A stretch of DNA of 56,183 bases from assembly GCA_027028505.1 (NCBI GenBank), contig JALVJE010000209.1, positions 1 through 56,183 of the forward strand, given 5' to 3'. This DNA is from Bacteroidales bacterium. Lineage in GTDB: Bacteria; Bacteroidota; Bacteroidia; Bacteroidales; VadinHA17. Made by a program: the position numbers and the translations under genes. A model generated the notes under the pieces. It searched no databases and was not told where the DNA came from. It was given only the letters and a program-made list of their open reading frames with translations. Of this stretch, positions 238-54,712 are shown piece by piece. The first letter of the stretch is position 1. The number at the start of each line of letters is the position of its first letter.

Positions 238-860
238 AAGGAAGGTCGAATGGCGAACAGTGGAAAGAGTCAGCGATGAGAGATGAGTGATGAGTGATGA
301 GCGATGAGTTAATGAGCGCAAATACCGGAAGGGACAAGGCACCGCCTTGTCCGTCTATCGGTAAGAAAATGTAGTAAGGAGTAAGGAGCGATGAATGGCG
401 AAGGTCGAATGGCGAACAGTGGAAAGAGTCAGCGATGAGCGATGAGCGATGAGTTAATGAGCGCAAATACCGGAAGGGACAAGGCACCGCCTTGTCCGTC
501 TATCGGTAAGAAAATGTAGTAAGGAGTAAGGAGCGATGAATGGCGAAGGTCGAATGGCGAACAGTGGAAAGAGTCAGCGATGAGCGATGAGCGATGAGTT
601 AATGAGCGCGAATACCGTAAGGGACAAGGCACCGCCTTGTCCGTATGTTGGTAAGGAAATGTAGTAGGGAGTTATGAGAGATGAGTGATGAGTGATGAGT
701 GATGAGCAATGAGTTAATGAGCGCGAATACCGTAAGGGACAAGGCACCGCCTTGTCCGTATGTTGGCAAAGAAATGGGATAAGGAGTAGGGAGCGACGAA
801 TGACGAATGTCGAACACCGAACAACGAAGGTCGAATTCGAATTGAAAGAGAGGCTGCCGT
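238..860. repeat. Tandem array of four REP-like hairpin units (periods 145, 145, 115 bp) with heptamer linkers
   Basis: GGACAAGGC-ACC-GCCTTGTCC starts at 332, 477, 622 and 737, each within GAGTTAATGAGCGCRAATACCGKAAG...CCGT. Linkers are GAGCGAT/GAGTGAT and GAAGGTC/GAATGGC-type heptamers. Confidence 0.9.
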
Positions 861-929
861 TGGCTCATTCTTTCCCGGTCTCCGCCGGTTTTGAATTCCC
901 GAATTTGGAGACCTTCAGGGCCGGCTACC

Positions 930-1508
930 CTATTTCCCTTTTCTTCCGCGGCGGAACAGACGGGGCCTTAACAACGAGGGGACCGTTTCGGGGAAGATCC
1001 CGCTCTTCACATACCGGATATCCTCCACCGAATAGAAAGCCTGGGAATTGTATTTCTGGATCAGTTCCAACAATGCCGGCATACTTTTTCTTCCGGTCAC
1101 AGAGTAAATAATATGAACAGGACCGTGGATACCATTGGCCTTCACGGAAGTAACCCCATATCCGTGTTCGTGAAGCTGTTCGATAAGCAGTGCCGCATCT
1201 TTCTGGGTAATAATGCGTATGAGCTGTGTACCCAGGGCCACCTTCTCTTCCACCAACATCCCCACATAGTTACCGGTGGCAAAACCGGCCGCAAAGGCAA
1301 TGTAACAAGCCGGGTTATTGAGGTTCTGGAAGATCCTGCTGATCGCCAGGATCCAGATCAACACCTCGAAAAAAGCCAGGAATGGCACGACATTACGCCG
1401 CCCTCTGGAGATAAGGATGATACGCATGGTCCCCAGCGTAACATCCACGATACGTGCCAGGAAGATCAGCAAAGGCAACAGTATGTATGAAAACCACCAT
1501 GCATCCAT
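930..1508 (-). CDS. UPF0316 / DUF2179 family membrane protein
   Basis: 192 aa with hydrophobic N-terminal half (IFLARIVDVTLGTMRII, FFEVLIW, FAAGFATGNYVG) and a C-terminal soluble domain (GYGVT...G..GPV.II). Confidence 0.85.
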   Translation of the reverse strand: MDAWWFSYILLPLLIFLARIVDVTLGTMRIILISRGRRNVVPFLAFFEVLIWILAISRIFQNLNNPACYIAFAAGFATGNYVGMLVEEKVALGTQLIRIITQKDAALLIEQLHEHGYGVTSVKANGIHGPVHIIYSVTGRKSMPALLELIQKYNSQAFYSVEDIRYVKSGIFPETVPSLLRPRLFRRGRKGK

Positions 1509-1595
1509 GTCATAATGTCTTTATGGTTTCTGTCCCCTTGCCCTTAACAAATAGAATACCATACCGGACCAATACGGCAATGAAAAGTCAAAAAG

Positions 1596-1860: not shown

Positions 1861-1950
1861 CGTGAATACCCCTATATTACCAAACTATTCCTTATTTTTG
1901 GCATAGTGGTACCGCAAAGCCCATCCATAAAATGTAGATCAACAGGTTCA

Positions 1951-2149: not shown

Positions 2150-3115
2150 ATGAAAAAAATATTCCCGGTGATGATCCTGACCCTTACCATGGCTGTTCTG
2201 AGCAGATCAGCTATCGGTGAAAGACACTACCCTTCCGGTGGAGCCGTGAACGGCTCACTGACGGTCGACGGGATCCAACGAACTTATTATCTCTATGTTC
2301 CGGAAAAATATACAGGCAGGAAATCCGTTCCGCTGCTGATCGTTCTGCATGGCGGAGGAGGCAGGGGAAAAAGGACGGAAGAAAAAACGACCCTCAACGG
2401 ATTCGACCGGCTGGCAGATAAGGAGGGATTCCTGGTCGTTTATCCGGATGCTGTGGAGTATCACTGGAACGACGGGCGGAACAACCCCTATTCCTATGCA
2501 GCCCGGCAAAACCTCAACGATGTAAAATTCATCTCTGCCCTGATCGATCACCTGGGAAACAAATACAACCTGGACCCAAAAAGGGTCTACGCCACGGGGG
2601 TCTCCAACGGCGGGATGATGAGCTTTCGCCTGGCCTGCGAGCTGCCGGACAGGATCGCAGCGATCGCCACCGTAGCCGCTTCCATGCCGGAGACTTTGTA
2701 TGACCATTGTACCCCGCAACACCCAGTTTCCGTATTGATCATACACGGCACGGATGACCCGCTGGTTCCGTGGAACGGAGGGGATGTGGTGGCTTTCGGA
2801 CAGCACCGCGGCTCCGTTGTGCCGGTCCCTCAAAGTGTTGAATTCTGGGTAAAACATGACCATTGCACCCTGCAGAAAGGGAAAACATGGCTGCCGGACA
2901 AAGATCCCCTGGACGGGACAAGGGTGTGGAAAGAGATGTATATCAACAGGGACGACAAGGTAAAGGTCGTGTTCTACGGGATCGAGGGCGGCGGTCACAC
3001 CTGGCCGGACGGCTTCAGCAGCCTCCCCCGTGTCACAGGAAAGATAACGCACGACATCAATGCCTGCAGGGTGATATGGGATTTTTTCAGGGAGGTGGGA
3101 AAAATAAATAAATAG
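2150..3115 (+). CDS. Secreted PHB-depolymerase / LpqC family alpha/beta-hydrolase esterase
   Basis: Signal peptide; PLLIVLHGGGG, YPD, nucleophile elbow TGVSNGG, HGTDDP and GGGHTWP motifs. Confidence 0.85.
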   Translation: MKKIFPVMILTLTMAVLSRSAIGERHYPSGGAVNGSLTVDGIQRTYYLYVPEKYTGRKSVPLLIVLHGGGGRGKRTEEKTTLNGFDRLADKEGFLVVYPDAVEYHWNDGRNNPYSYAARQNLNDVKFISALIDHLGNKYNLDPKRVYATGVSNGGMMSFRLACELPDRIAAIATVAASMPETLYDHCTPQHPVSVLIIHGTDDPLVPWNGGDVVAFGQHRGSVVPVPQSVEFWVKHDHCTLQKGKTWLPDKDPLDGTRVWKEMYINRDDKVKVVFYGIEGGGHTWPDGFSSLPRVTGKITHDINACRVIWDFFREVGKINK

Positions 3116-3169
3116 GTATTTAAATATCTATTTAAATAGGCATTTTAATAGGTATTTAAATAGGTATAT
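3110..3169. repeat. Five tandem 12-bp quasi-palindromic units (AAATAGGTATTT family)
   Basis: AAATAGGTATTT AAATATCTATTT AAATAGGCATTT TAATAGGTATTT AAATAGGTATAT; homologous inverted copy at 21785-21844. Confidence 0.8.
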
Positions 3170-3435
3170 TTAAGGAACGATGAAGGATGAACGATGAATG
3201 TAGAACATCGAACACCGAACACCGAATTTTGAATTCTGATTGCTGATTTTTCAATCATTCAATCATTCAATCATTCAATCATTTCCCTCCCCTGCATCTT
3301 GATCCTCTCTTCAAGCCCCGGCAAGCCATCGGCCGCCAAAGGCGGTTACTGAGTAGCCGTAGGCGTATCGAAGGGAGCCGACGGCGCTGCCGGGATCTCC
3401 GCTTCGCTCCGACTTCGCCATTCGAGCATCGCACT
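3170..3435. repeat. Composite intergenic repeat (heptamers, TCAATCAT octamers, nested hairpin with module B)
   Basis: GAACGAT/GAAGGAT/GAACACC heptamers; TCAATCAT x4; reverse-complement module B at 3349-3374 inside a longer stem (3317-3394). Confidence 0.75.
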
Positions 3436-5330: not shown

Positions 5331-5747
5331 TCATTCCCCGATGATCTTCACCAGTACGCGTTTGCGGCGTTTGCCGTCGAACTCGCCATAGAAGACCTGC
5401 TCCCACGGTCCGAAGTCGAGACTACCGTCGGTGACAGCGATGACCACCTCGCGTCCCATGATGGTGCGTTTCAGGTGGGCATCGGCATTGTCCTCAAAGC
5501 CGTTGTGACGGTATTGTGAATAGGGTTTTTCCGGTGCCAGCTTCTCCAGCCACACTTCAAAGTCGTGGTGCAGGCCGGGCTCATCATCGTTGATAAAGAC
5601 GCTGGCCGTGATGTGCATAGCATTGCACAGCAGCAGGCCTTCTTTTATGCCGCTCTCGCGCAGGCATTCGTTCAGCTGCGGCGTGATATTGATCAGCTCC
5701 CGCCGCTTGCTGGTCTCAAACCAGAGTTCTTTTCTGTAACTTTTCAT
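5331..5747 (-). CDS. yjbQ: YjbQ / UPF0047 family protein
   Basis: 138 aa with [18 protein letters not shown] and [15 protein letters not shown] motifs. Confidence 0.9.
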
Positions 5748-5754: not shown

Positions 5755-6019
5755 GTTATTAGTTCACAGTTCAGAGTTCACAGTCCCGCAGTTCCCGGGA
5801 TTTGATCCCGCTGGAACTGCGAGGATCCTCGAAAAACTACGCAAATCAAAGATTTGCTGTTTTTCGGGATTCACAGTTCACAGTTCACAGTTCAGAGTTC
5901 ACAGTTCACAGTTCAGAGTATCGAGTTTTGAGTATCCCCGTCCGACCGGACAGTCGTCCGGGCGGGGAGTATCGAGTTGGTGGTTCGTGGTTAGTGGTTA
6001 GTCGTTCATCGATCATCGT
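5755..6019. repeat. Composite intergenic repeat: AGTTCAC/AGTTCAG heptamers, module D (5783-5870), module E (5936-5967)
   Basis: Module D is near-identical to 10222-10309. Module E reads CCCCGTCCGA-CCGGAC-AGTC-GTCCGG-GCGGGG. Confidence 0.85.
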
Positions 6020-8641
6020 TCATCCTTCTGCCAGCCCCATATCTTTCTTTATGGCTTCGATCTTCTGCACCAGTTCCGCATCCATCCTGTCAAAGTCGGC
6101 GGGGTCTTTCAGCTCCCCTTTGACACTGAAATAGAACTTGATCTTGGGTTCGGTCCCCGAGGGGCGCACCGATACCTTTGAGCCGTCGTGCAGGATGAAC
6201 TGCAGCACGTTGGATCGGGGCAGGGTGATGTGATAGCGCAGGTCGGAGATCAGATCGATGGTCTGCTGTTTCAGGTAATCGTGGATGAGCATCACGTTGG
6301 AACCGTTGATGGTCTGGGGATAATGGCTGCGGAAGTTATCCATCATGGCCTGGATCTCTTCGGCCCCTTTCTTGCCCTTGCGCACGATGTTCAGCAGGTC
6401 TTCCCGGTAAAAGCCGAACTGCACGTAAATATCTTTCAGCAGGTCGAGGAGGCTCTTCCCCTGGTCTCTGGCCCAGGCGGCGGTCTCGGCCACCATCACG
6501 GCTGTGCTGACGGCGTCCTTGTCGCGCACGAAGTCGCCCACCATGAAGCCGTAGCTCTCCTCGCCCCCACCGATGAAGGTCATCTTCCCCTCATTGCGGC
6601 GGATAACGTCGGCGATCCATTTGAAGCCTGTCAGCACATCGAAATATTTCACTCCGAAGTGCTTTGCAATATCAGCTAGCAGATCGGTGGTCACGATGGT
6701 CTTGACAATATACTCTTTGCCGGTCAGTTTTCCTTTCTCCTGCCAGCGCCGCAGAAGGTAATAGGTGAGCAGGGTGGCGGTTTGGTTGCCGTTGAGGAGG
6801 CGCATGGCCCCTTTGTCGTCGCGCACGGCGATACCCAGGCGGTCGCCGTCGGGGTCGGAGGCCATCACCAGCTCGGCGCCGGTCTCGTCGGCTCTCTTCA
6901 GGGCCATCTCCAGGGCGGCATGCTCCTCGGGGTTGGGTGACACCACCGTGGGGAAGTTACCGTCGGTAATGTCCTGCTCGGGCACGTGGATGATATTCTT
7001 AAATCCGTAACGCTCCAGGGCCGTGGGCACCATTTTCACCCCGGTGCCGTGGATGGGCGTGTAAACGATCTTCAGGTCGCTGTGTTTTTTCACGGCCTCC
7101 GGCGACAGGGAGAGGGAGGTCACCTCTTTCAGGTAGGCCTCGTCCACCTCTTCCCCGATGATCTTTATCTTCTCTTTGGGTCCGTCGAACATCACCTGGG
7201 AAGGATCCTTGATGCGGGCTACCTCGGCGATGATCGCTTTGTCGTGGGGGGGGATCACCTGGGCGCCGTCTTCCCAATAAGCTTTGTAACCGTTGTACTC
7301 TTTGGGGTTGTGCGAGGCCGTGATCATCACGCCGCTCTGGCAGCCCAGATGGCGTATCGCAAAGGAGAGCTCGGGCGTGGGACGCAAGTCGTCAAAGAGA
7401 AAGACCTCAAAACCGTTGCCGGCAAAGATGCCGGCCGTCGTCTCGGCGAAGAGACGGCTGTTGTTGCGGCAGTCGTGCGAGATGACCACGCGGATGACCT
7501 CACGGCCGGCAAACTGTTTCTTCAGGTAGTTGGCCAGGCCCTGTGTGGCCATACCCACGGTATAGATGTTCATCCGGTTGGTGCCGGCGCCCATGATGCC
7601 GCGCAGGCCGCCCGTACCGAACTCCAGATGTTTGTAAAAAGCATCAATGAGCTGGTCGGGGTCTCCGTCCAGCAGTGCCTGCACCTCCTTTTTGGTCTGT
7701 TCGTCGTAAGGACCTTCCAGCCACTCGCGGGCTTTGGCCTGCACCTGTTCCAGTAAATTATCTTTTTCCATATCTGTCGTTATTAAATTTTTCAAACATT
7801 TCCGTAATCCCTCTTTCCAGTGAGGTATCGTGATCCCGTAATCCTTTTTGATCTTCTCCTTCGCCAGCACGCTGTAAAAGGGACGTGGTGCCGGCCGGTT
7901 GAACTGTTCCGACGTAACTGCCAGCACGGGTATTCTCTTCCCTGCCGTTTCCAGGATCTCTTTTGCAAAGTCGTACCAGCTGCAGACCCCCTCATCGGCA
8001 TAATGATAAATGCCGGGCTTCCATCCCCCTTTCTCCTCAGCCCTGTCGATCACCTGTAGGATGGCTTCCGCCAGGTCGCCGGCATAGGTCGGCGAGCCGA
8101 TCTGGTCATAAACGACCTCCAGGGCCTCCCGCTCGTCCGCCAGCCGCAGGATGGTCTTTACGAAATTACTGCCCTCCTCGGAGTACAGCCAGGCGGTACG
8201 TATCACCAGGGTGTCGGAATACTCCAGGGCGATACGTTCCCCTTCGTACTTGCTCTTGCCATACACCGACCGGGGATCTGGACGGTCGCTCTCGCGATAA
8301 GGCCGGTAGCTCGTCCCGCTGAAAACATAGTCGGTCGAGATGTGGATCAGCCGGAAAGGATGCTCGTGCGTGACCGCCAGCAGATAGGCCACAACATCGG
8401 CATTGAGCAGGAAAGCCCGGGCCGGCTCTTCCTCGGCCCTGTCCACGGCCGTATAAGCCGCACAGTTGATGACATAATCGGGGCGCTCCTGCAGGAGGAA
8501 AGCCATGACTGTCTCCCGGTCGGTCAGGTCCAGCTCACCGATATCGGTAAAGAGGAATTGCCAGCGGGGCCGGCGCTCCGAGGCCTTCCTCAGCGCACTG
8601 CCCAACTGTCCGTCCGCACCGGTGACGAGGATCTTTGGCAT
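6020..8641 (-). CDS. rfbD-pgm: Single 873-aa ORF: dTDP-4-dehydrorhamnose reductase (RfbD/RmlD, about aa 1-290) fused to phosphoglucomutase/phosphomannomutase (internal ATG at 7771)
   Basis: N-terminal part has TGADGQLG, NCAAYTAVD, ISTDYVF, YGKSK and RP..S.L. C-terminal part has LEFGTGGLRG, phosphoserine loop TASHNP, metal loop DPDGDR, GEES and RPSGTEPKIK. No stop codon at the junction (KCLKNLITTDMEKD). Confidence 0.85.
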   Translation of the reverse strand: MPKILVTGADGQLGSALRKASERRPRWQFLFTDIGELDLTDRETVMAFLLQERPDYVINCAAYTAVDRAEEEPARAFLLNADVVAYLLAVTHEHPFRLIHISTDYVFSGTSYRPYRESDRPDPRSVYGKSKYEGERIALEYSDTLVIRTAWLYSEEGSNFVKTILRLADEREALEVVYDQIGSPTYAGDLAEAILQVIDRAEEKGGWKPGIYHYADEGVCSWYDFAKEILETAGKRIPVLAVTSEQFNRPAPRPFYSVLAKEKIKKDYGITIPHWKEGLRKCLKNLITTDMEKDNLLEQVQAKAREWLEGPYDEQTKKEVQALLDGDPDQLIDAFYKHLEFGTGGLRGIMGAGTNRMNIYTVGMATQGLANYLKKQFAGREVIRVVISHDCRNNSRLFAETTAGIFAGNGFEVFLFDDLRPTPELSFAIRHLGCQSGVMITASHNPKEYNGYKAYWEDGAQVIPPHDKAIIAEVARIKDPSQVMFDGPKEKIKIIGEEVDEAYLKEVTSLSLSPEAVKKHSDLKIVYTPIHGTGVKMVPTALERYGFKNIIHVPEQDITDGNFPTVVSPNPEEHAALEMALKRADETGAELVMASDPDGDRLGIAVRDDKGAMRLLNGNQTATLLTYYLLRRWQEKGKLTGKEYIVKTIVTTDLLADIAKHFGVKYFDVLTGFKWIADVIRRNEGKMTFIGGGEESYGFMVGDFVRDKDAVSTAVMVAETAAWARDQGKSLLDLLKDIYVQFGFYREDLLNIVRKGKKGAEEIQAMMDNFRSHYPQTINGSNVMLIHDYLKQQTIDLISDLRYHITLPRSNVLQFILHDGSKVSVRPSGTEPKIKFYFSVKGELKDPADFDRMDAELVQKIEAIKKDMGLAEG

Positions 8642-8673: not shown

Positions 8674-8820
8674 AGTTCAGAGTTCACGGTTCACAGTTCA
8701 CAGTTCACAGTTCATAGTTCATAGTTCATAGTTCACAGTTCAGAGTTCACAGTTCAGAGTTCACAGTTCAGAGTTCACAGTTCAGAGTTCACAGTTCACA
8801 GTTCACAGTTCACAGTTAGA
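8674..8820. repeat. Heptamer VNTR, 20 units of AGTTCA(C/G/T)
   Basis: 20 contiguous units at 8674-8813 (one GGTTCAC variant) plus a degenerate unit; followed by a module E hairpin at 8825-8857. Confidence 0.95.
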
Positions 8821-8970
8821 AGTACCCCCGTCCGACCTGCGTTAGCCAGGCGGAGGGTTACGAGTATCGTGTACCGGACCGTTCATTCAAAAATCAGCAA
8901 TTAAAAATCAAACCTGTCCGTCCGTAGTCACAATATGTTGTGACGAAGGCGGAAATCATCATTCATTTCC

Positions 8971-8978
8971 TATCTTTG
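8971..8978 (+). promoter_or_regulatory. Bacteroidota -7 promoter box for the GH130 gene
   Basis: TATCTTTG lies 33 nt upstream of ATG 9012. Confidence 0.55.
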
Positions 8979-9011
8979 ATCATTGACAAAATGTATAAAA
9001 TCTTTTTCGCC

Positions 9012-10154
9012 ATGAAACGCTTCATCCCGCTCTTCCTCTTCCTCCTGCTCCTTCCCGCCTTTACCGGCTGCCAGACACACAAGCCTGCTGATGGTAGCTC
9101 CTGGGTGCTGGGGCCTTTTGAAAAAGACCTGCGGGACAATCCGGTGCTGGGACCGCTTACCAACGTCTCCTTCCCCGATCCCATCCGCAAGAGCGATGTG
9201 TACTGGGAGGCCAAGGATGTGTTCAATCCTGCCAGTGTGGTGCGGGGCGACACGCTCTTCCTGCTCTTCCGTGCCGAGGATTCTATAGGCCGTTACAACG
9301 GAACCTCCCGCATCGGCCTGGCATACAGCCTGGACGGGGTGCATTTCACAAGAGAGGATCATCCGGTGCTCTATCCGGACCATGATGCCTTTTTCAAATA
9401 CGAATGGGAAGGGGGCTGCGAGGACCCGCGAATCGTGGAGGACGACTCCGGCACTTATTATATGACCTATACAGCTTACAACGGCGACAAAGCCCGTCTC
9501 TTCATAGCCACCTCCCGCGACCTGCGCCACTGGACCAAGCACGGATCGGTGTTCGCCCGGGCCGGAGAGCAATATGTGGACATGTGGTCAAAATCGGGAT
9601 CCATTGTCAGCGAGATGCGGGAGGGCCGTCTCATCGCCGTGAAGATCCACGGGAAATACCGTATGTTCTGGGGAGAGTCCAGCATCTATATGGCCACCTC
9701 GGACGATCTCATCCATTGGGATCCGGTACTGGAGACCGATCCGGCCAAAATGCAGTACGACACCATGCGCCATTATACGGCAGCTTTTAAGATCCTGTTC
9801 ACCACCCGTCGTGGAAAGTTTGACAGTGAGCTGGTGGAGCCGGGCCCCCCGGCTCTCCTCACGGAGCACGGAATCGTCTTTATCTACAACAGCAAGAACA
9901 GCCCGGCTTACGGAGACACATCGTTGCCGGCAGGCACCTACGCCGCCGGGCAGGTGCTGATCGACAAGGACAACCCGGAGAAGGTGATCGACCGCACCGA
10001 CCGGTGGTTCATCGCTCCCGACCAGCCATTCGAGATCACCGGCCAGGTGAACAATGTCTGCTTCGTGGAAGGGCTCTCATTCTTCCATGGAAAGTGGTTC
10101 CTCTATTACGGCACAGCTGATTCGAGGATCGCCGTGGCAACGGCAGAGCAGTGA
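9012..10154 (+). CDS. Glycoside hydrolase family 130 lipoprotein (beta-mannoside-active)
   Basis: Start reassigned to 9012 (MKRFIPLFLFLLLLPAFTGC lipobox). Motifs VFNPA, SRIGLAYSLDG, GCEDPR, KSG, VEPGPP, GQVNNVCFVEGL and YYGTADSRI. Confidence 0.85.
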   Translation: MKRFIPLFLFLLLLPAFTGCQTHKPADGSSWVLGPFEKDLRDNPVLGPLTNVSFPDPIRKSDVYWEAKDVFNPASVVRGDTLFLLFRAEDSIGRYNGTSRIGLAYSLDGVHFTREDHPVLYPDHDAFFKYEWEGGCEDPRIVEDDSGTYYMTYTAYNGDKARLFIATSRDLRHWTKHGSVFARAGEQYVDMWSKSGSIVSEMREGRLIAVKIHGKYRMFWGESSIYMATSDDLIHWDPVLETDPAKMQYDTMRHYTAAFKILFTTRRGKFDSELVEPGPPALLTEHGIVFIYNSKNSPAYGDTSLPAGTYAAGQVLIDKDNPEKVIDRTDRWFIAPDQPFEITGQVNNVCFVEGLSFFHGKWFLYYGTADSRIAVATAEQ

Positions 10155-10157
10155 GGT

Positions 10158-10345
10158 AGTTCATAGTTCATAGTTCAGAGTTCAGAGTTCAGAGTTCAGA
10201 GTTCAGAGTTCACAGTTCACAGTCCCGCAGTTCCCGGGATTTGATCCTGCTGGAACTGCGAGGATCCTCGAAAAACTACGCAAATCAAAGATTTGCTGTT
10301 TTTCGGGATTCACAGTTCAGAGTTCAGAGTATCTGGTTTTGAGTT
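10158..10345. repeat. Composite intergenic repeat: AGTTCA(T/G/C) heptamers plus module D
   Basis: Heptamers begin just after the GH130 stop. Module D at 10222-10309 differs from 5783-5870 at one base. Confidence 0.85.
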
Positions 10346-10407
10346 GGTGGTTGGGGATTTTATTTTCCGCTACCGAAAAAAGAGAAAAATTCTCCTCTCT
10401 GTCAAGA

Positions 10408-12834
10408 TTACTTCTTCACCACCTTCAGCACCTCTTTACGGCCGGGATAACAGAGTTCGAGCAGATAGAGGCCCGGCGCCGGGGGCAGGGTGAAGGAGCA
10501 GGTGGAAGAGGGAATATTGTCAAAGGCTCTGATCTGCCGTCCCTGCAGGTCACGCAGCACCATCCGGTAAGGCACCCTGCCGGGGGCAAACTGCAGGGTC
10601 ACCCTGTCCTCCGACGGATTGGGCCGGACGCTCGCCAGCGGATCGTCACGCCCATCCTGCACGGCCAGGGGACAAGGATACACACAGTTGCTGATCACGG
10701 TGAAACCGTCTTTGGTGATCCTGACAGCATAATGCCCCTCACGCTCGGGAGTAAAAGACTGAGCCGTAGCGCCCCCCATGGGATTGTACAAGAGGTCACA
10801 ATCCAGCCAGCGGTAAACGGCCCCTTCTTCAATGGCAGCCAGATCGCCATAACCTCCCTCACCTCCTGTAAGGCAATAGGCCACTGCTCTTTTATCGAGG
10901 GGGATCAGCGGCTCCACTGAGGGAGGCCAGCCCCTGAAGACCTCCCAAAAGAATACCCTGAAATCATAGTCATTCAGGATCAGATGATCCCGTGCAATCT
11001 CCTGTTTTTCGATGAGCGCAGCGTTGAGGGATGCCGCTTCGTCATCTTTTCTGATGTAATACTCCACATCTTTCTTATAATCCACATTGTCAGACCCTCC
11101 GGAATATCCCACCAGCCGGTATTGTGTCCCGGCGGAGGTACGCTGGTAATCGCTTCCTATCAACTCAATAAGCCTCGTCTCCAGGTCGTAGGCCACGGAA
11201 TCGATGGCCTGTGCCAGGGGTGTGATCTGCGGATCGCCGTCATTGACCCCATTTTTGAGGATGCTGCGGAACAGGACGTTCACGTCGATGGTGGAGGTGG
11301 TACGCTGGCTGTAGCTCTCGTTATGGACCCGTTCTCCCGGCCAGTGGGCGGTGTTCAGAACAGGATCATCATAATAAAAAGAGGTCATGCCAGTCTTGTC
11401 GAGCGTGGCATTATCTCCGGTGAGGATCACCGACCACACAGCATCCTGCAGGTCACCGGTCCAGGGGATCTCCATACGTACGTTCAGAAGGCGGGAGCTG
11501 TCTTTCGTAACCGTTATCTCATCACTCTCTATCGTCTGTTCACCGTCACCGGTAAAGAGTGTGAGCATAAACCTTACCCGGGTATTCCCCTGTGAAGTGA
11601 TCTTTGCCAGGAAATCATATTTTCCCGGTCCGTTGTTCTGCAGGGCGAGCCCTACGTCCTGGCTGATCTTCACCTCTGTGGCGGCCGCATCATTGATGTA
11701 CAGGAAATGATCCTCCCTGCTTACTCCCGGGGTCACCGTGCCCCCCTCGGTCGTCCAGTGCTTCAGTCCCTCCTCAAATCCCGGATTACTGAGCATGTTC
11801 CACCACACATCCGGTCCCGAGGTGATCATCTTCGTGATCTCCGGCCATGCCCACTCCTCCAGGATACCGTTGCCGTTATGGTCTCTTTGTGCATCGTAGA
11901 TGCCTGTACCGCCGTCGAACATCATCAGATACGCCGAGGGGATCCCTCTGTCGATGAACCTGCGCGTGTTGTCCACAGCCATGGGCCAGGCCACCCACAT
12001 CTCGTTATCATCGGTCTTGGAGGCCCAGGCACCACTCCACACCACCTGTTTGGCGGAATCCATGTATTCCCATGCCTGCTGGATGAGACGTACGTTATCG
12101 CGTACATCCGATTTCAGCACATGGAAATCCCACATATACCAGATCCCGGCTTCGGGCGGGATGGGATCAAAATCCCTGGTAATGAACCAGTCGGCTCCCG
12201 GGCCGAAAGGGTTGTCCTTGACATTCTGCGGCGGCACCTTAAAATAGATAATGAGACGGTCGGGATTGGTCTTGCGTATCTCCCGGGTGATCTCCTGATA
12301 ATAGACGGCGATGCGCTGCGGATCGTCATTGTTCACCAGACGCCAGGGTTCCACAAAAAGATCGAAGATGAGACGATGGCTTTTGTCTTTGAAACGATCG
12401 GCCACATAGCCCCACCAGCTCACCATCTTGTCCAGGTCGCCGGGGTTGTCATCCGTCAGACCGACAAAAGTGATGACCACGGCCAGGTTCTTGCTCAGCA
12501 GGTCGTCGATGATATCCTCCAGCTCATTGAGCAGGGCGTCATCGTCAGCATCGTAGGGAGGTCCGTCGGCGATGGCAATTATCATGGGGTTCTTGTCCCC
12601 CTGGTACCGTATACGCACGCTCCTGAAACCGGCCGCCACGATGCTGTCGCCATAGGCAGGACGGTAGGGCGCCGAGACCCCCAGGTCTACACCGCCCGAC
12701 TCCGGCTCAAACAGAATACCCTTATCCAGCATGGTTACGGCCGTCACCGGCGACACCGGCGGATCCGGCGGCTGAGCCATCATACCAACCTGAAAGCAGA
12801 GCAGAAGAAGAATATAGAGGAGGTCTTTTTTCAT
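10408..12834 (-). CDS. T9SS-secreted multidomain protein: GH5-like TIM barrel, CBM4/9-like module, helical domain of unknown type, Ig-like module, T9SS CTD
   Basis: Signal peptide; GFRSVRI, W..VADRFKD...LIFDLFVEP, IRKTNPDRLII and DFH follow the GH5 motif order; NPGFEEG starts a CBM-like module; C-terminus VRPNPS...LRDLQGRQI...PGLYLL...KVVKK is a T9SS CTD. Confidence 0.7.
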   Translation of the reverse strand: MKKDLLYILLLLCFQVGMMAQPPDPPVSPVTAVTMLDKGILFEPESGGVDLGVSAPYRPAYGDSIVAAGFRSVRIRYQGDKNPMIIAIADGPPYDADDDALLNELEDIIDDLLSKNLAVVITFVGLTDDNPGDLDKMVSWWGYVADRFKDKSHRLIFDLFVEPWRLVNNDDPQRIAVYYQEITREIRKTNPDRLIIYFKVPPQNVKDNPFGPGADWFITRDFDPIPPEAGIWYMWDFHVLKSDVRDNVRLIQQAWEYMDSAKQVVWSGAWASKTDDNEMWVAWPMAVDNTRRFIDRGIPSAYLMMFDGGTGIYDAQRDHNGNGILEEWAWPEITKMITSGPDVWWNMLSNPGFEEGLKHWTTEGGTVTPGVSREDHFLYINDAAATEVKISQDVGLALQNNGPGKYDFLAKITSQGNTRVRFMLTLFTGDGEQTIESDEITVTKDSSRLLNVRMEIPWTGDLQDAVWSVILTGDNATLDKTGMTSFYYDDPVLNTAHWPGERVHNESYSQRTTSTIDVNVLFRSILKNGVNDGDPQITPLAQAIDSVAYDLETRLIELIGSDYQRTSAGTQYRLVGYSGGSDNVDYKKDVEYYIRKDDEAASLNAALIEKQEIARDHLILNDYDFRVFFWEVFRGWPPSVEPLIPLDKRAVAYCLTGGEGGYGDLAAIEEGAVYRWLDCDLLYNPMGGATAQSFTPEREGHYAVRITKDGFTVISNCVYPCPLAVQDGRDDPLASVRPNPSEDRVTLQFAPGRVPYRMVLRDLQGRQIRAFDNIPSSTCSFTLPPAPGLYLLELCYPGRKEVLKVVKK

Positions 12835-12859
12835 GAGGTTAATATATCCAGGAATAATG

Positions 12860-13075
12860 GTTTCAGGTTTCAGGTTTCAGGTTTCAGGTTTCAGGTTTCA
12901 GGTTTCAGGTTTCAAGTTTCAAGTTTCAGGTTTCAGGTTTCAGGTTCCAGGTTCCAGGTTTGTGGTTGGTGGTTGGTAGTTGGGAGTTTACCCATCAATC
13001 CATTATTCCATTATTCCAACATTCCTTTTGCCTTATTACTTATTACTTTTTACTTTTTATCCTTTCCGCCAGTGC
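12860..13075. repeat. Heptamer VNTR (GTTTCAG x14 with variants) followed by GGTTGGT, TCCATTAT and TTACTTA/TTACTTT tracts
   Basis: 14 contiguous units at 12860-12957 (10 GTTTCAG, 2 GTTTCAA, 2 GTTCCAG). Confidence 0.9.
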
Positions 13076-20128: not shown

Positions 20129-20296
20129 AATTCAATTTTTTGTCTTGCCTAAGTGTTGCATTTTTTAAAACAGTGAGCACGCATAACAAGGGATCATAAG
20201 CGGCGCAAAATAATAAAATTCACAGAAAGAAATATCATGATGGACATGATAAAGAAAGAACCTCCCGGCATAAAAGATTTTTTTATTTTTATGTGC

Positions 20297-30503: not shown

Positions 30504-30645
30504 AACACCGTTCTTTTTGGATCCAAACAGCGTCATTACTGCCGATCTCTCCCGGGCAACCGTAATGGCACGACAAAAATAAAAAGTTCGCTCTTTCGCT
30601 CTCCACGGCAGGATTTCATTTAACAAAATTTAACAGTTTGAGAAT

Positions 30646-30685
30646 AGTTGATAAGTTGAAAGGTTGAAAAGTTGAAGGGTTGATA
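30646..30685. repeat. Octamer tract (A/G)GTTGA(T/A)(A/G) x5
   Basis: Reverse complement of the TCAAC(C/T)TA family at 36058-36129. Confidence 0.8.
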
Positions 30686-32358: not shown

Positions 32359-32461
32359 GGAAGTGTAGAGTGTGGAGTGTGGAGTGTGAAGTGTGGAGTG
32401 TGGAGTTTTTAGTTAAAAGTTAAAAGTGAGCTAAAGTTAAAAGTTGGGATATTAAGTTAGT

Positions 32462-35817: not shown

Positions 35818-35880
35818 GGCTGTATTTTTTGTTAATACGGTAAAGATACAAAGGATTCAGTTAAAAACTAAAAGTGTGGA

Positions 35881-36129
35881 GTCCCGCAACTCTTAGGATC
35901 TTCGATCCTATAGAGTTGCGAGGATGCTCGCAAATGCTGCAAGCAAGCATTTGCGGCAGGTGGAGTTACGAGTTATGAGTATCGGGTATCGAGTTCACAG
36001 TTCATAGTTCATAGTTCATAGTTCGTAGTTCGTAGTTCGTAGTTCGTAGTTAATTCATCAACTTTTCAATTTTTCAACTTTTCAACCTATCAACCTATCA
36101 ACCTATCAACCTATCAACTTATCAACTCA
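35881..36129. repeat. Divergent module D (35881-35955), AGTTCA/CG heptamers x8 (35992-36047), TCAAC octamers x9 (36058-36129)
   Basis: Read directly; the TGA stop of the C25 gene (36127-36129) lies inside the last octamer. Confidence 0.85.
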
Positions 36130-43763: not shown

Positions 43764-43836
43764 GAGTGTGGAGTGTGGAGTGTGGAGTTAGATGAAAAGC
43801 ATGGAATATTTGTAGAGACAAGGCACCGCCTTGTCT
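43764..43836. repeat. GAGTGTG heptamers followed by a module A hairpin carrying a 5' GTAG
   Basis: GTAG-AGACAAGGC-ACC-GCCTTGTCT at 43812-43836; the outer G-C pair of module A is replaced by A-T. Confidence 0.8.
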
Positions 43837-43844: not shown

Positions 43845-44008
43845 AACCCAAAATCAGCAATAGAAAAACGCAAGCGCTTTTCATTGCTGATCGATCAAGG
43901 ATTTCATCGGTTTTGGTTATTACCAAAACCGTGAACCCCTAAATCGGGGTTAACCCCAGCTAACGCATTAGTTCAGCTAATCCTTAGCTTCCTAATGCGT
44001 AATCTGGG
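43845..44008. mobile_element. About 165-bp MITE-like, multi-hairpin element, copy 2 (inverted relative to copy 1)
   Basis: Reverse complement aligns end to end with 1951-2116; differences fall mainly in loops. Confidence 0.6.
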
Positions 44009-44135
44009 ATAAACATAACAAGGTTCCAGGTTTCATGTTCCAGGTTCCAGGTTTCAGGTTTCAGGTTTTCAGGTTCCAGGTTTTTTGTTTATTTCGACGT
44101 TCGACGATCAGCATTCGACCTTCAGCATTCGCCAT

Positions 44136-44193: not shown

Positions 44194-45018
44194 TTAATCG
44201 AGGACCTTGATCTTGATATTGCGGTACCATACATCATCCCCGTGGTCCTGGAGGCCGATGTATCCCTCCTCGGCCACATTGGCCCAGTTGGGATTGTAGT
44301 GCGGGAATTTGCTGTGGGCCACCAGGGTATCCCATTCGGGGGTCCAGAGATGGTATTCCACAACAGTTTCACCGTTCATCTTATGGATGACCGTACCCCG
44401 GTAGACGATGATCTCCACATGGTTCCATTCGCCGGCAGGCTTGGCGTTCTGAGGCTTGGCCGGTATCAGGTCGTAGAGGGACCCGGCCTGCCTGTTCCCG
44501 TCCTTGCCCAGCTTGGCGTCGGGGTGGCGTTCATTGTCCAGCACCTGCATTTCGGGAGCCGTAGCCCAGATGGGTTTGTCGGTCTCCTGGGCCAGATAGA
44601 AGATCCCGGAGTTACCCCCTTTGGAGATCTTCCAGTCCAGTTTCAGGTCGAAGTCCTTGAACTTTTTATCGTAAATGATATCGCCGCCTTCTTTGCTGCC
44701 GGCCTCACCGCGGCCGGAGCCTTTGCAATGGAGCGTACCATCGACGACCTCCCAGCCGCTGGGGAAATGATCTTTGCCATATCCCCGCCAGCCTTTGGTT
44801 GTCTTGCCGTCAAAGAGCAGCACCCATCCGTCTTTTTTCTCTTCAGGGGTGAGGGTGTTCGGGGGAACACTCTCTTCGCTCTTTTCGGTCACTTCTTCTT
44901 TTTGCTCTTCAGATGCCGACTCACTCTTCTCCTCTTTGTTGGTGGCATTTTTACAACCGGCCACAAAGATGAAAGAGAAAAGGGCTGTCATCAAAAAGAG
45001 ATATTTGTACTTTTTCAT
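44194..45018 (-). CDS. DUF1080 (3-keto-disaccharide hydrolase/hydratase family) lipoprotein
   Basis: Start reassigned to 45018 (MKKYKYLFL...FVAGC lipobox). GWVLLFDGK...GWRGY, DF.L.L.WK...GNSGIFY, PEMQVLD, AGSLYD, GEWN and G.IGLQDHG...YRNIKIK. Confidence 0.9.
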   Translation of the reverse strand: MKKYKYLFLMTALFSFIFVAGCKNATNKEEKSESASEEQKEEVTEKSEESVPPNTLTPEEKKDGWVLLFDGKTTKGWRGYGKDHFPSGWEVVDGTLHCKGSGRGEAGSKEGGDIIYDKKFKDFDLKLDWKISKGGNSGIFYLAQETDKPIWATAPEMQVLDNERHPDAKLGKDGNRQAGSLYDLIPAKPQNAKPAGEWNHVEIIVYRGTVIHKMNGETVVEYHLWTPEWDTLVAHSKFPHYNPNWANVAEEGYIGLQDHGDDVWYRNIKIKVLD

Positions 45019-45057
45019 TTCTGAAATATTTAAAAGGTTAAACAATTACATTATCCT

Positions 45058-49532: not shown

Positions 49533-49574
49533 TCCGGCAAAAGGCGGGGTACTTCTCCGAGGAAGGTACGACAC

Positions 49575-49610
49575 AAAAAAAAGGGCTGCAAGCTTGCAGC
49601 CCTTTTTTTT
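49575..49610. terminator. Bidirectional intrinsic terminator between convergent pckA and the oxidoreductase gene
   Basis: A8-GGGCTGCA-AGCT-TGCAGCCC-T8. Confidence 0.9.
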
Positions 49611-51794: not shown

Positions 51795-51883
51795 ATGTAA
51801 AAATTTTGTCAAAGTTAAGAAATCCGGAACAACGGATTTGTTTTATTTTAACCGGTAAAATTAAATCTTTCTGTTGTTTACTG

Positions 51884-54541
51884 TTATTGCGGGGTATATT
51901 GTCCCATCAGGATGGCATTGAACAGCAACTTGAAGGTTGCAGGCGTGGAGACACGGAACTGGGGGTTGAACCCCATCAGGATCATCTGTCCTTTTCCTTT
52001 CCGTATCCAGACGATAGCAGATTTTCCGCCCATCAACTCAGGGTGTTCGGCATAACCGCTCATCAGTATATTTTCTTCGGGATAGGTTCCCATGACACGG
52101 CGGTCGCTGTCAAAAGGAGGCAAAGAGGTTGCAAAAACAGGACGGCCACGGGAGAAAACACCTACGGAAGAAAGCATCCCCTCTGATACCGGCATACCGG
52201 GATTGAGCTCCACCCGGACCAGCGACCCCGGTACGTACAGGCCTTTCTCGGCCAGAGAAGAGGAGATATCATGGAAAGGCAGCGTAAAGTTCTCCTTGGT
52301 AGTGGTCTTACCGTTCTTGCGCGTGACAGTCTGTTTCCCTTCGAAGAGGGCCGTGGAGCTACCCCAGGATATGATCTTCCCACCGTCCTCGAACCATTTC
52401 ATCAGTTTCTGAAGGCCATCCTTGCCCATGCCTTTGGTATATTCAGGTGCATAATAAGACATATAATAACTGCCGGCACCGGCTGTGCCGCCCAGCAAAG
52501 CAGATTTGGATGACGAGGGGAAGATGATCATATCATAAGCGGAAAGATCGGCAGAAGGGATATCTCCGGGATGAAGTACTTTGAAAGGAATATGGTAGGT
52601 ATCGAAAAGATAGCGGGTCCAGCCGGCATCCATATCATGGTAATAGGTTTCCACCAGAGCAATGCGTGGTATAGCAAACGGTTCTTCAGAGAGAGTGGTT
52701 CCCTCACCGACAGACACCGGTGTGAAGGTAAACATTTTGTTCAGGAGATCCCACCCCTCTTTGTCTTTGTCCGATCGGGAAACAACGAAACTGCCTGCTG
52801 CATATTTTTTGCCGTTGATCACCACATCTTCTTTCAGGCGCTTTACTGTCATTCCGTTTTGGGCAGCCAGGAAAGCAGCTTTGAAACTCTCATTGTAATC
52901 CACGGGGAGGATTACCGTTTTCACTGCCGGGGCCAGGGGCTGTTCGAGGAGCGTGAAGGTCTCCCTGAGTGGCTCCAGGGCGGCACCCACCTCCGGGGCA
53001 GGCTCCGTGACCGTCACCGTTTCTATCTGCCGCTGTAATGGCAACGACCAGGTGGTAATATCATAAGGTTTGATGATCTTCCCGCCCGGGGTATAATGAC
53101 GCACCGGGAATTCCTGTTTTTCCATCACCTCCTTGATGAAGGCCCGGAAGGGCTGGGCCAGGGGCACCACCAGGTCGCCCGTATGGAAAAGACGGTCGTT
53201 GAGCATCACGTCTTTTTTCAACGTATAGACATTCACCCCCTGTTCGCGCAGAAGATTGACCAGACCTACCAGTTCGCTCACGTCATGCTGCTCGCGGGGC
53301 ATGATATAATAATAAGGAGGCTGTGTCTTTCCCAGCTCCACCTCTTTTTTACACAGATCGTTCCTGAACTTCAGGATCTTGTCATGATAAAGAGCAGCCG
53401 TTTTAATGATGGAGCGCACCGAGACCTGCTCGTATTCCACGATATCCCCCAGGCGCCACCAACCCCCTTCCCAGGGCATAGGCATATTGATGCTCTTTTT
53501 ATACTCGGACAATCCTTTTCCCCCCACCCTCAGTTCGTTCGGCTCCACATAGATGGGTGTTGCATAACGAGCACTGGCGCATTCGGTAAGGAAAGCAATG
53601 ACATTCTGCCAGATACAGGTCTCTGTCGAACCGGGCCAGTAATTATCAAAGGCATAATGCTGCGATACACCGGCCAGTCCCGCATGGGTCATATCGTTGA
53701 TGAGATTCTGCCCGAAGATCCCCGTCCAGGTCCACATGTTGGCATCAATGTTAAGGGCGATAGGATCGGAATTGGGCGGGACATAGTAACGTGGACCTGT
53801 CGTGCCCATCTGGTGTTTTTCGACCATCACCTGGGGAAACCAGGTCTGCGTGAAGATACGCTGGATGTTACGCGTGTCTTCCTGGCTCAGAATAACAAAG
53901 TCGCGGTTGTTGTCATGTCCGACATACTTATGGTAAACACCGGGAAGAGAAGCCCCCTCGTATTTTGTTCCCTTGTATTTTCTGTAGTTCTTCACCACCA
54001 GGTCCATGCCGTCGGGATTGTGACAGGGAACCATCATATAAACCACCTTATCAAGCCATGCAGTTTTTTCAGGATCGTTGGTGGTCGTAAGTTCATAGGC
54101 CTCCAGCGGAGCTGCCTGCGAAGGTCCCACCTCATCACTGTGCATGGAGAGGGTCGCCGCCACAAAAACCCGGCCTTCCCTGATCAGCTTTTGCTGCTCC
54201 GCATCACTGAGCGTGGCATCTAGGGCCAGCTTGCGGTTGATCTCCTGCAGACGGCTGAGATTGTTGATATTCTCTTCGGAAGAGAAAAAAGCAATGTACA
54301 TCGGCCGGCCCATGGGACTCTTACCTATCGTGATCATCTTCATCCGGGGAGAAGCTTCATCCACTTTCTGAAGATAGGCGATCAACTGCTCGTAATCGAT
54401 CAGGTTCCTGTCACTACCCGGAACGAAACCGAAAAAAGACTCCGGCACTGGCACATCAGCCGCACACGTTAAGGGTGGCGGTAGTACAAACAGAAAAAAA
54501 GAGGCAAAGAAAAAAATCAGGGAGATCAATTTTTGGGACAT
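51884..54541 (-). CDS. Secreted M14 zinc carboxypeptidase-family protein with C-terminal glutamine-amidotransferase-like domain
   Basis: Zn motif MHSDE (HxxE), NPDG, DNNRD and HQM; later DAGWTRYLF and YDMIIFP. -7 box TATTTTTG at 54568-54575 on the minus strand. Confidence 0.85.
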   Translation of the reverse strand: MSQKLISLIFFFASFFLFVLPPPLTCAADVPVPESFFGFVPGSDRNLIDYEQLIAYLQKVDEASPRMKMITIGKSPMGRPMYIAFFSSEENINNLSRLQEINRKLALDATLSDAEQQKLIREGRVFVAATLSMHSDEVGPSQAAPLEAYELTTTNDPEKTAWLDKVVYMMVPCHNPDGMDLVVKNYRKYKGTKYEGASLPGVYHKYVGHDNNRDFVILSQEDTRNIQRIFTQTWFPQVMVEKHQMGTTGPRYYVPPNSDPIALNIDANMWTWTGIFGQNLINDMTHAGLAGVSQHYAFDNYWPGSTETCIWQNVIAFLTECASARYATPIYVEPNELRVGGKGLSEYKKSINMPMPWEGGWWRLGDIVEYEQVSVRSIIKTAALYHDKILKFRNDLCKKEVELGKTQPPYYYIMPREQHDVSELVGLVNLLREQGVNVYTLKKDVMLNDRLFHTGDLVVPLAQPFRAFIKEVMEKQEFPVRHYTPGGKIIKPYDITTWSLPLQRQIETVTVTEPAPEVGAALEPLRETFTLLEQPLAPAVKTVILPVDYNESFKAAFLAAQNGMTVKRLKEDVVINGKKYAAGSFVVSRSDKDKEGWDLLNKMFTFTPVSVGEGTTLSEEPFAIPRIALVETYYHDMDAGWTRYLFDTYHIPFKVLHPGDIPSADLSAYDMIIFPSSSKSALLGGTAGAGSYYMSYYAPEYTKGMGKDGLQKLMKWFEDGGKIISWGSSTALFEGKQTVTRKNGKTTTKENFTLPFHDISSSLAEKGLYVPGSLVRVELNPGMPVSEGMLSSVGVFSRGRPVFATSLPPFDSDRRVMGTYPEENILMSGYAEHPELMGGKSAIVWIRKGKGQMILMGFNPQFRVSTPATFKLLFNAILMGQYTPQ

Positions 54542-54712
54542 AGCTGGGAAATTTTGGGTTTAAGGCACAAAAATAGAAAAGTATCGGTATCATTATACCT
54601 GAAACAAAAGAAAAAGAGGCCGGCGGCCTCTGTATTTTGCTTCAGAAAAAGGATAGAATAATGGAAAGATGGAAAAAATGGATTATTAGGGAATGAATTC
54701 TGATTTTTGAAT

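Follow-up and report, generated by a model that had tools for sequence, protein, structure and literature searches.

Oriented repeat arrays in a Bacteroidales contig

The window analysed here is the whole of contig JALVJE010000209.1 (C209), a stretch of 56,183 nucleotides from a Bacteroidales genome (GCA_027028505.1, here G000; 3.38 Mb in 275 contigs, 53% GC, 92% complete), and the elements in question are short tandem arrays with 7- to 9-nt units that occupy the gaps between its genes. Arrays within about 100–150 nt of the end of a coding region are oriented such that their G-rich strand runs 5′ to 3′ away from the gene. On the sense strand, the same rule places an excess of G over C after stop codons and an excess of C over G, accompanied by A over T, before start codons; on the + strand, a gap is G-rich on its left and C-rich on its right for any orientation of the flanking genes. 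An earlier note on this DNA had described such inward-pointing repeats and had tentatively ascribed them to addition or repair at a cut site or to selection for long-range pairing. Its observation is confirmed, and its interpretation is partly supported.

Genes were called by a self-trained in-frame hexamer score, with no curated annotation, which yielded 2561 genes, 88% coding sequence and 1983 internal gaps; Pfam matches on ten proteins of the window are consistent with the called strands. The Pfam content is of Bacteroidota type (gingipain-type C25 peptidase, GldG-like ABC auxiliary proteins, GH3, Y_Y_Y regulators), and the Bacteroidota −7 promoter box, TAnnTTTG, peaks 20–40 nt upstream of start codons. 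DNA of this genome occurs in hydrothermal-vent metagenomes, whereas no RNA run was found to contain it; among Logan contigs of four vent metagenomes, unitigs break at the arrays. Tandem Repeats Finder (TRF) reports 1418 period-7 and 444 period-8 arrays in the genome as against 113 of period 6, the window contributing 83 rows. In total, the genome holds about 1,800 tandem repeats of slippage type with units of 7, 8 or 9 bp; among the 1787 non-redundant arrays, 1349 lie in gaps between called genes and 280 in open reading frames (ORFs), mostly at ORF ends. They are mainly non-coding and, being found on nearly all contigs, dispersed. The units, which fall into 211 canonical heptamer families, mostly contain few G runs and one to three pyrimidines each, and they are joined head to tail as in the heptameric class of simple sequence repeats (7-nt, also 8- to 9-nt units). 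All 17 units listed in the earlier note occur within about 10 nt of where it had placed them, and TRF detects the arrays.

The polarity of an array was scored as the sign of G minus C on the + strand, distinguishing G-type from C-type arrays, and an array was taken to obey the rule when its G-rich strand runs 5′ to 3′ away from the nearest gene end. In G000, left gap halves contain 436 G-rich and 197 C-rich arrays and right halves 188 and 478 (chi-square 213, p = 3e-48). The fraction of 7/8-mer arrays with G exceeding C declines from 0.83 through 0.64, 0.48 and 0.31 to 0.19 over successive fifths of a gap, left to right; the polarity thus persists in the stratified, genome-wide skew by gap position that the earlier note had suggested as a check. 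Gaps with arrays in both halves obey in 161 cases and violate in 20, and all four gap classes behave alike (convergent 58:6, divergent 22:2, tandem 45:9 and 36:3), which bears out the claim that the pattern is indifferent to gene orientation. Periods 7, 8 and 9 each show it. Outside the window, 889 of 1261 arrays obey (p = 3e-49), and arrays obey in the majority on 84 of the 98 contigs that carry at least five.

Within the window alone, the rule is a trend only, with 25 of 38 skewed arrays obeying (p = 0.07). Rule-breakers are the arrays at 5976, 12957, 21988, 35992 and 44021. A further exception is gap 238-929, where G-type arrays extend to 82% of the gap width: a 145-bp composite repeat keeps G-type sequence on the + strand past the middle of the gap, so that the arrays at 576, 669 and 795 violate the rule for gap halves. 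The principal arrays of the window are as follows.

275-309, + strand: GATGAGT, 5 copies, 37 nt after the stop codon of gene 1-237 (+); obeys.
289-684, + strand: the 145-bp composite, made of three heptamer arrays and a GC hairpin module, 2.7 tandem copies of 95% identity.
1670-1712, + strand: AGCGATG, 6 copies, upstream of gene 930-1508 (-); outward G-type at a 5′ flank.
3175-3198, + strand: GAACGAT, 3.4 copies, after the stop codon of gene 2150-3115 (+); obeys.
3250-3283, - strand (the G-type strand): TTCAATCA, 4.2 copies, in the middle of convergent gap 3116-3435, where the + strand switches from G-type to C-type.
5761-5919, + strand: AGTTCAC/AGTTCAG arrays upstream of gene 5331-5747 (-), reading GTGAACT on the sense strand.
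6002-6028, - strand: TCGTTCA, 3.9 copies, overlapping the 3′ end of gene 6020-8641 (-) and reading TGAACGA in the sense direction; a G-type trailer that obeys.
8674-8817, + strand: AGTTCAC, 20.6 copies with G and C nearly balanced, 32 nt upstream of the start of gene 6020-8641 (-), with a −7-box-like motif (TAccTTTG) between array and start.
10158-10223, + strand: AGTTCAG, 9.4 copies, beginning 3 nt after the stop codon of gene 8940-10154 (+).
12859-12961, + strand: GGTTTCA, 14.7 copies, 24 nt upstream of the start of gene 10408-12834 (-); obeys.
12999-13018, - strand: TCCATTAT, 2.5 copies, 24 nt after the stop codon of gene 13043-14158 (-); obeys.
21530-21692, + strand: in the trailer of gene 20237-21463 (+), near-homopurine GAAGGAT and GAGTAGG arrays with dispersed hairpin modules between them.
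22028-22046, - strand: TTCAAGCA, 2.4 copies, next to a GC hairpin within the trailer of gene 22112-24364 (-); obeys.
25181-25204, + strand: a GAGCGAT-type array, which forms the left arm of the window's only truly complementary pair.
25437-25452, - strand: CTCATCG, 2.3 copies, the right arm of that pair.
25495-25519, - strand: TTCGACC, 3.6 copies, in the trailer region of gene 25689-26660 (-); obeys.
30642-30676, + strand: GAAAAGTT, 4.4 copies, 15 nt upstream of the start of gene 29913-30626 (-); obeys.
32362-32406, + strand: AGTGTGG, 6.4 copies, beginning 3 nt after the stop codon of gene 31003-32358 (+); obeys.
36058-36127, - strand: TCAACTTT/TCAACCTA, 8.8 copies, abutting the stop codon of gene 36127-40239 (-); obeys.
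43763-43788, + strand: GGAGTGT, 3.7 copies, running from the stop codon of gene 40416-43763 (+) onward; the cross-phylum scan below is based on this family.
44100-44135, - strand: a TTCGACC-type array in the trailer of gene 44194-45045 (-), with a hairpin and then a T run just beyond.

At the contig end, a gene for a DDE transposase (DDE_Tnp_1 with DUF4372; 54816-56048) is set in a stretch of low GC content (47%) and is scored as foreign by the host-trained coding model.

Polarity at the edges of genes

The polarity is a gene-edge effect. The array nearest to a flank obeys at 365 of 445 gene 3′ ends and at 161 of 233 5′ ends. The fraction of arrays with the G-rich strand outward amounts to 0.84 within 5 nt of stop codons and 0.81 at 5–20 nt from start codons, falls to 0.53 and 0.58, respectively, at 150–300 nt, and stands at 0.53 where both genes are over 150 nt away. 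AGT is found on the outward strand of 368 arrays and ACT on that of 116, in agreement with the shared AG(T) register pointed out in the earlier note. Dispersed hairpin modules in the same gaps show a polarity of the same sign that is weaker, about 65–72%.

Three trivial sources of the pattern were considered and rejected. Arrays inside ORFs, read on the sense strand, are G-type at ORF 3′ ends (63:13) and C-type at 5′ ends (65:35) but balanced in the interior (43:42), and restriction to high-confidence (long, high-scoring) flanking genes leaves obeying fractions of 0.82 at 3′ ends and 0.71 at 5′ ends. An artefact of ORF calling is thereby discounted; moreover, longest-ORF calling would swallow C-type leader arrays, so that such an artefact would oppose the rule. 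General spacer composition fails as a cause since the skew of non-repeat gap DNA reaches only about +0.03 and −0.03 at the two gap ends. No skew was found in repeat-free trailers (3′ flanks), and repeat-free leaders (5′ flanks) are depleted of G in their last 20 nt only (GC skew −0.13 and −0.14). Stop codons, start codons or Shine–Dalgarno (SD)-like motifs, finally, do not account for the rule: their inclusion in the model leaves the G−C weight unchanged and equal at the two flank types (5.69 and 5.75), and the rule persists among arrays that are neutral for stops and starts (111:27 and 55:16). The equality of the two weights is the best argument for one common cause.

In a symmetric logistic fit, the G−C weight is positive at both flank types and the A−T weight flips between them. 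In G000, trailer arrays are rich in G+A and leader arrays in C+A on the sense strand. The description of gaps as G/A-rich on the left and C/T-rich on the right thus stands for G and C, whereas A and T follow the sense strand of the neighbouring gene.

Every unit family has a preferred outward strand, including families with equal numbers of G and C (AGTTCAT 53:16, AGCTCGA 39:7) as well as AGTGTGG (47:12) and AGTATCG (34:8). Some families favour trailers (GATGAAC 19:1, AGGCAAA 20:1, AGCTCGA 30:2) and others leaders, where the sense strand reads ATGAACT for AGTTCAT (29:2), GTGAACT for AGTTCAC (18:0) and CGATACT for AGTATCG (26:4). Two families face outward at both gene ends (AGTGTGG 32:8 and 15:4; CTGGGTG 19:4 and 7:0) and hence occur in opposite orientations relative to transcription.

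A polarity that converges from both sides of a gap could arise if the arrays were the two arms of intergenic hairpins or inverted repeats, the symmetry of a palindrome being kept for pairing, as the earlier note had suspected. Along the + strand, G-type followed by C-type arrays outnumber the reverse succession by 226 to 50; convergent pairs of one family occur in a Thermoguttaceae genome described below and in Xanthomonas (PMC4692102), and the pair 25181-25204 and 25437-25452, which the earlier note had proposed for folding, does pair (25181-25201 with the right arm) in the minimum-free-energy fold of 25171-25460. However, only 2 of the 226 convergent neighbours are complementary within one mismatch, as compared with 10.4 ± 3.0 for shuffled partners, and the duplex energy is no better than in shuffled pairs (−0.423 versus −0.458 ± 0.019 per nt). 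Arrays flanking a single gene are complementary in 0 of 87 cases (4.7 expected), and single arrays beside a gene are as polar as paired ones. Right-edge arrays are therefore C-rich, as claimed, but are not complements of the left arrays of the same gap, and selection for long-range pairing, whether across gaps or across single genes, was rejected; as an explanation of the rule, it is barely credible. The pair at 25181 and 25437, the sole instance of complementary arms in the window, is an exception in that both arms reside in copies of one dispersed module inserted in opposite orientation. The shortage of complementary neighbours suggests selection against long inverted repeats built from arrays.

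An orientation imposed by the replication strand, as for oligomers of the FtsK-orienting polar sequence (KOPS) or Chi type, would likewise sort G-rich repeats by strand. Since replichores cannot be assigned with 275 contigs, the sign of contig GC skew served as a proxy. The G-type share is 49% in positive-skew and 44% in negative-skew contigs, a shift of about 5 points, and 27 of 38 skewed arrays in the window are G-type on the + strand. Yet both polarities occur inside single gaps of 100–500 bp, which is at odds with a replichore skew, and positive-skew and negative-skew contigs alike follow the left/right rule (left 175:68 and 165:102, right 84:204 and 67:198). Replichore orientation was rejected on these grounds and its probability as a cause is close to negligible. 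The skew thus follows neither the replichore proxy nor a single direction of transcription, two of the outcomes that would have spoken against the earlier note.

Turnover among relatives and recurrence across phyla

Arrays of the AGTTCAN type were found in 3 of 11 genomes of the genus that were searched, namely G000, its array-rich sister genome G001 (85% complete; genes 90–95%, or about 92%, identical to those of G000) and, in small numbers, G003. Where gaps of G000 and G001 are orthologous, spacers free of repeats have hardly changed whereas array-bearing spacers are rewritten: position and direction of the arrays are conserved while the unit sequence differs. Thus, AGTTCAC at 8674-8817 is replaced by AGTTGATN in G001 with its orientation conserved, GGTTTCA at 12859-12961 by GGTTTGA, and GGAGTGT by AAGTTAA. 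Such fast turnover between close relatives is typical of the heptameric repeat class, and rewriting of units in place fits what would be expected from slippage with homogenisation.

The question of origin bears on a further alternative, namely that arrays are born and grow directionally from the gene edge, seeded on a heptamer that contains the stop or start codon, so that their fixed polarity would be mutational rather than selected; end-directed addition as considered in the earlier note belongs here. Several observations are in keeping with such growth. The stop codon is repeated in phase one period later in 29% of stop-abutting arrays, and the start codon one period upstream in 44% of start-abutting arrays. 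A modest gradient of mismatches per unit is seen from the gene-proximal to the distal side (0.69 versus 0.91 and 0.66 versus 1.06) and along the G strand from 5′ to 3′ (0.70 versus 0.89, p = 0.005), and arrays far from genes are unoriented. On the other side, about 70% of arrays do not contain the neighbouring stop or start codon, the more than 200 unit families speak against a templated adder, and orthologous arrays hold place and direction while their unit is rewritten. Searches with the RVT_1 profile returned no match in G000 or G001, both of which are incomplete genomes (92% and 85%), so that this absence is not proof. Telomere-like or reverse transcriptase-templated addition is disfavoured by the lack of an RVT_1 match and by the presence of 211 families instead of one templated unit. 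As array-linked factors, reverse transcriptase, Y1/RAYT transposases and 23S intervening sequence (23S-IVS) protein genes were rejected, the first for want of a match and the others as equally present in array-free congeners. Directional growth is on balance rather improbable. Its variant in the earlier note, addition at a cut, is not supported, the polarity being strongest at the gene edge and lost midway through long gaps, no RVT_1 match being found, and orthologous arrays differing in unit sequence at the same place. The note had further held that its models fit better than undirected slippage; undirected slippage with a subsequent orientation-dependent filter accounts for the data no less well.

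Besides arrays, several other differences separate G000 and G001. Hairpin modules may be present in one of the two genomes only. A two-hairpin module of ~85 nt (TCCCGCA...) lies inside the arrays at 5784-5870 and 35890-35975 and is missing from the orthologous G001 arrays; the insertion within 35818-36126 has GTGGAG at either border, perhaps as a target duplication. In G000, convergent gap 10155-10407 holds nothing but arrays and a hairpin module, whereas the corresponding region of G001 (C429, 1108-4374) contains an extra 3.2 kb, apparently coding, with same-orientation AGTTCAN arrays at its left boundary and inside, adjoining an apparent start codon. To judge from the sequences, this difference looks like gene gain or loss by recombination between direct arrays. 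Comparison of 49533-49608 with G001 (C337, 10163-10529) reveals a G001 insertion of ~290 bp after a bidirectional terminator hairpin, flanked by the direct repeat TATCCCAGAT. It contains a 165-bp AT-rich element with a GGGGTTAACCCC palindrome, of which further copies lie at 1951-2116 and 43845-44008 of the window and on at least six other G001 contigs; the element behaves like a miniature inverted-repeat transposable element (MITE).

The rule extends beyond the genus. An exact scan for four consecutive GGAGTGT units, carried out on one genome per species with a crude longest-ORF map and no control pattern, located arrays in at least eight phyla (Firmicutes, Bacteroidota, Cyanobacteria, Planctomycetota, Chloroflexota, Acidobacteriota, Actinomycetota and others). 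Their G strand is directed outward from the closest ORF in 56 of 71 cases (p = 1e-6; 25 of 36 at 3′ flanks and 31 of 35 at 5′ flanks), and the median ORF distance is 57 nt on the 5′ side of the G strand as against 185 nt on its 3′ side. Three unrelated genomes were put through the complete procedure, in which gene calls were self-trained and every 7/8-mer array was scored. The rule is obeyed by 58 of 87 arrays in 400 kb of the heterocystous cyanobacterium Cylindrospermum NIES-4074 (p = 0.0025), by 22 of 31 in a planctomycete Thermoguttaceae genome, and by 51 of 59 (p = 9e-9), or 32 of 37 with the GGAGTGT family excluded, in a clostridial Faecousia genome. In each of the four genomes, the sense strand shows C>G and A>T in leaders and G>C in trailers, the A/T balance of trailers being variable. 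Recurrence across phyla implies that the cause should be general.

GGAGTGT arrays are frequent in few genomes, namely the Faecousia and Thermoguttaceae metagenome-assembled genomes (MAGs) and rumen Clostridiales MAGs, and rare in their relatives. In the Thermoguttaceae genome (G034), they often form convergent same-family pairs about 110–170 nt apart that are true inverted repeats (C135:27385-27535, C135:28635-28774, C169:9685-9816 and C5:1159-1350).

Mazel and co-workers are said to have described, in 1990, the cyanobacterial short tandemly repeated repetitive (STRR) sequences, heptamers in non-coding DNA with many families per genome. In the strict sense, STRR sequences belong to heterocystous cyanobacteria and have the units CCCCAGT, TTGGTCA and CAACAGT. 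The host here is of Bacteroidota type, canonical STRR units are missing from the 40 commonest, and the main units differ; the same polarity is nevertheless measurable in Cylindrospermum NIES-4074, which substantiates the kinship with cyanobacterial heptamer arrays to which the earlier note had pointed.

The closest precedent in geometry comes from Rehm et al. 2015 (PMC4692102), who described GGGAATC in Xanthomonas and GGGGAYT in Nostoc as dispersed intergenic tandem heptamers with no preference for a replication strand. The Xanthomonas arrays lie 'almost exclusively' nearer to the ORF located 5′ of the G strand (28 nt versus 160 nt), are divided about evenly between the sense and antisense strands of the ORFs, form 70–75 convergent pairs per genome and show a strong tendency to abut or overlap stop codons (PMC4692102). 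The geometry is the same as here, the G strand being nearer to its 5′-side ORF on either ORF strand, but it was neither stated as a rule nor quantified by flank type nor explained. Furthermore, Xanthomonas and Nostoc each possess one quadruplex-forming family per genome, whereas more than 200 families, skew-neutral ones included and most of them devoid of G runs, all obey here; the GGG that characterizes each unit of Xanthomonas-type quadruplex repeats is lacking in the leading families, such as AGTTCAT, AGTGTGG, AGCTCGA, AGTATCG and GATGAGC. Convergent pairs are true inverted repeats in Xanthomonas, and complementary partners are avoided here.

A second precedent concerns leaders. TAACTGA arrays occur in forward orientation just before start codons, with an occasional reversed array after a stop codon (MacGregor 2015, PMC4679880). 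The leader families of G000 share this fixed orientation immediately upstream of starts, and the largest of them read RTGAACT on the sense strand, with an AACT core common to both. The TAACTGA work addressed a single-unit leader element with a proposed translational role; it includes neither a rule for trailers nor a general polarity of G and C. A Nostoc preprint also suspects heptamer arrays close to start codons of regulating expression. Like mosaics of repetitive extragenic palindromic (REP) sequences, bacterial interspersed mosaic elements (BIMEs) or MITEs, the gaps contain, in addition, dispersed hairpin modules that are gained or lost between sister genomes; in contrast to these elements, the tandem arrays are not arms of inverted repeats and their polarity is stronger than that of the modules. 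No paper was found that states a general polarity rule for gene ends. The arrays thus belong to a known class of heptamers and their geometry had been noted for one family, whereas the general rule for both gene ends and across phyla is a new variation on it.

Candidate causes and significance

Whatever its nature, the cause must be strand-polar, tied to the ends of coding regions, equal at both of them, independent of pairing and of Rho, and general. The reading favoured here, at a probability of roughly 0.4, is that slippage-made arrays are filtered by an orientation-dependent block to transcription that stems from a G-rich non-template strand and involves R-loops. Slippage would generate arrays in either orientation, and a G-rich non-template strand would impede the polymerase through R-loops. 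A G-type array on the sense strand ahead of a gene would then choke its expression and be removed, whereas a G-type array behind a stop codon would be harmless or might even help to halt read-through. As the same physical property would act at both gene ends, one rule of equal strength at both would result.

Biochemical work on RNA polymerase lends this reading its substance. G-rich homopurine sequence blocks transcription strictly when located on the non-template strand, and replacement of G by A weakens the block less than replacement by C or T (PMC3561996). Blockage exceeds ten-fold at 9 bp from the promoter and is strongest adjoining it, while a C-rich insert causes far weaker and an A-rich insert no significant blockage (Belotserkovskii et al., PMC3561996 and PMC5499740). 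These compositions match those of trailers (G+A) and leaders (C+A), which favours the R-loop filter. The strand-polar effect of G is common to both systems; the link to heptamer arrays would extend the in vitro result by analogy.

A number of observations weigh against such a filter. The blockage experiments were performed with T7 RNA polymerase in vitro on long G-rich homopurine tracts, whereas most units here contain one to three pyrimidines and few G runs. Skew-neutral families such as AGTTCAT and AGCTCGA are strongly oriented, and G-richness cannot account for their polarity. Among 326 leader arrays, at least 58 have a −7-box-like motif on their downstream side and are perhaps not transcribed towards the gene. 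Hairpin-plus-T terminators are equally frequent in G-type and C-type trailers (0.23 and 0.24), a result that does not discriminate between the models; within the first 250 nt, hairpin-plus-T sites are present in 54 of 232 trailers with an array at most 60 nt from the stop codon, as compared with 168 of 439 array-free trailers. In 222 kb sampled from G001, the rule runs in the same direction but is weak (48 of 79), in a genome whose contigs end at arrays, so that many gene-edge arrays are lost from the count. Finally, unless a block to outbound transcription is of consequence at both gene ends, the model has to assume a separate selective reason for each.

The last point leads to the possibility that two separate constraints at the RNA level coincide, one favouring A/C-rich, G-poor, unstructured leaders for translation initiation and the other favouring purine-rich trailers for a different reason. 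In detail, some leader arrays would supply in-phase ATG...TGA mini-frames, and trailers would be shaped by stop density, 3′-end stability or termination context. The leader side of this proposal agrees with the depletion of G in the last 20 nt of repeat-free leaders and with the proximity of leader arrays to start codons (median 28 nt, a quarter within 4 nt, about 45% ending within 20 nt). Skew-neutral leader arrays carry start and stop codons, ATG and TGA, on the sense strand (32:3 and 15:0), codons are in phase in abutting arrays at the frequencies given above, and TAACTGA arrays stand forward just before starts in Beggiatoaceae, cyanobacteria and Bacteroidetes (PMC4679880). The specialisation of families such as GATGAAC and AGTTCAC for one flank and the flip of the A−T weight in G000 are also readily accommodated. 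Under unrelated forces, however, the identical G−C weights at both flanks after correction for codon features would be a coincidence, and neither the reversal of AGTGTGG and CTGGGTG relative to transcription between gene ends nor the lack of any skew in repeat-free trailers would be expected. Furthermore, the rule applies in SD-using Firmicutes and cyanobacteria in addition to Bacteroidota. Two coincident constraints are hence a serious but somewhat unlikely alternative to the R-loop filter.

Transcription could also be polarised through Rho: RNA polymerase inbound from outside the gene would read the C-rich, G-poor strand, its transcript would serve as a rut site, and foreign transcription would be stopped before the gene. 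At both gene ends, C indeed exceeds G on the inbound strand, the C/T-rich antisense strands of trailers offer many YC dinucleotides, and the RNA-binding domain of Rho is present in G000, G001 and the planctomycete. The domain was not found in the nearly complete genome of Cylindrospermum or in the Faecousia genome, both of which obey the rule, and a cause based on Rho can therefore not be general. In addition, leader arrays lie within 20 nt of starts, where a rut site would attenuate the gene's own expression, and skew-neutral families are polar as well. Insulation by Rho is very unlikely.

Heptamer arrays have been known since 1990 as STRR and are over-represented in many bacteria, with no established function or placement rule. 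One rule, of equal weight after stop codons and before start codons, now spans hundreds of unrelated units in at least four phyla and in Xanthomonas. It turns a vague 'junk repeat' into a testable object and constitutes a practical warning for annotation and construct design in such organisms. If the filter is transcriptional, as favoured here, the arrays would represent a new class of bacterial insulator. A bolder and distinctly doubtful extension would make G-skewed arrays a widespread bacterial 'one-way valve' that lets polymerase in and hinders it on the way out by means of R-loop-prone, purine-rich RNA. If true, the valve would be a repeat-based, sequence-unspecific insulator that has arisen repeatedly in Bacteroidota, Cyanobacteria, Planctomycetota, Firmicutes and Xanthomonas, and in function it would resemble the termination zones with GC skew and R-loops in which human genes end.

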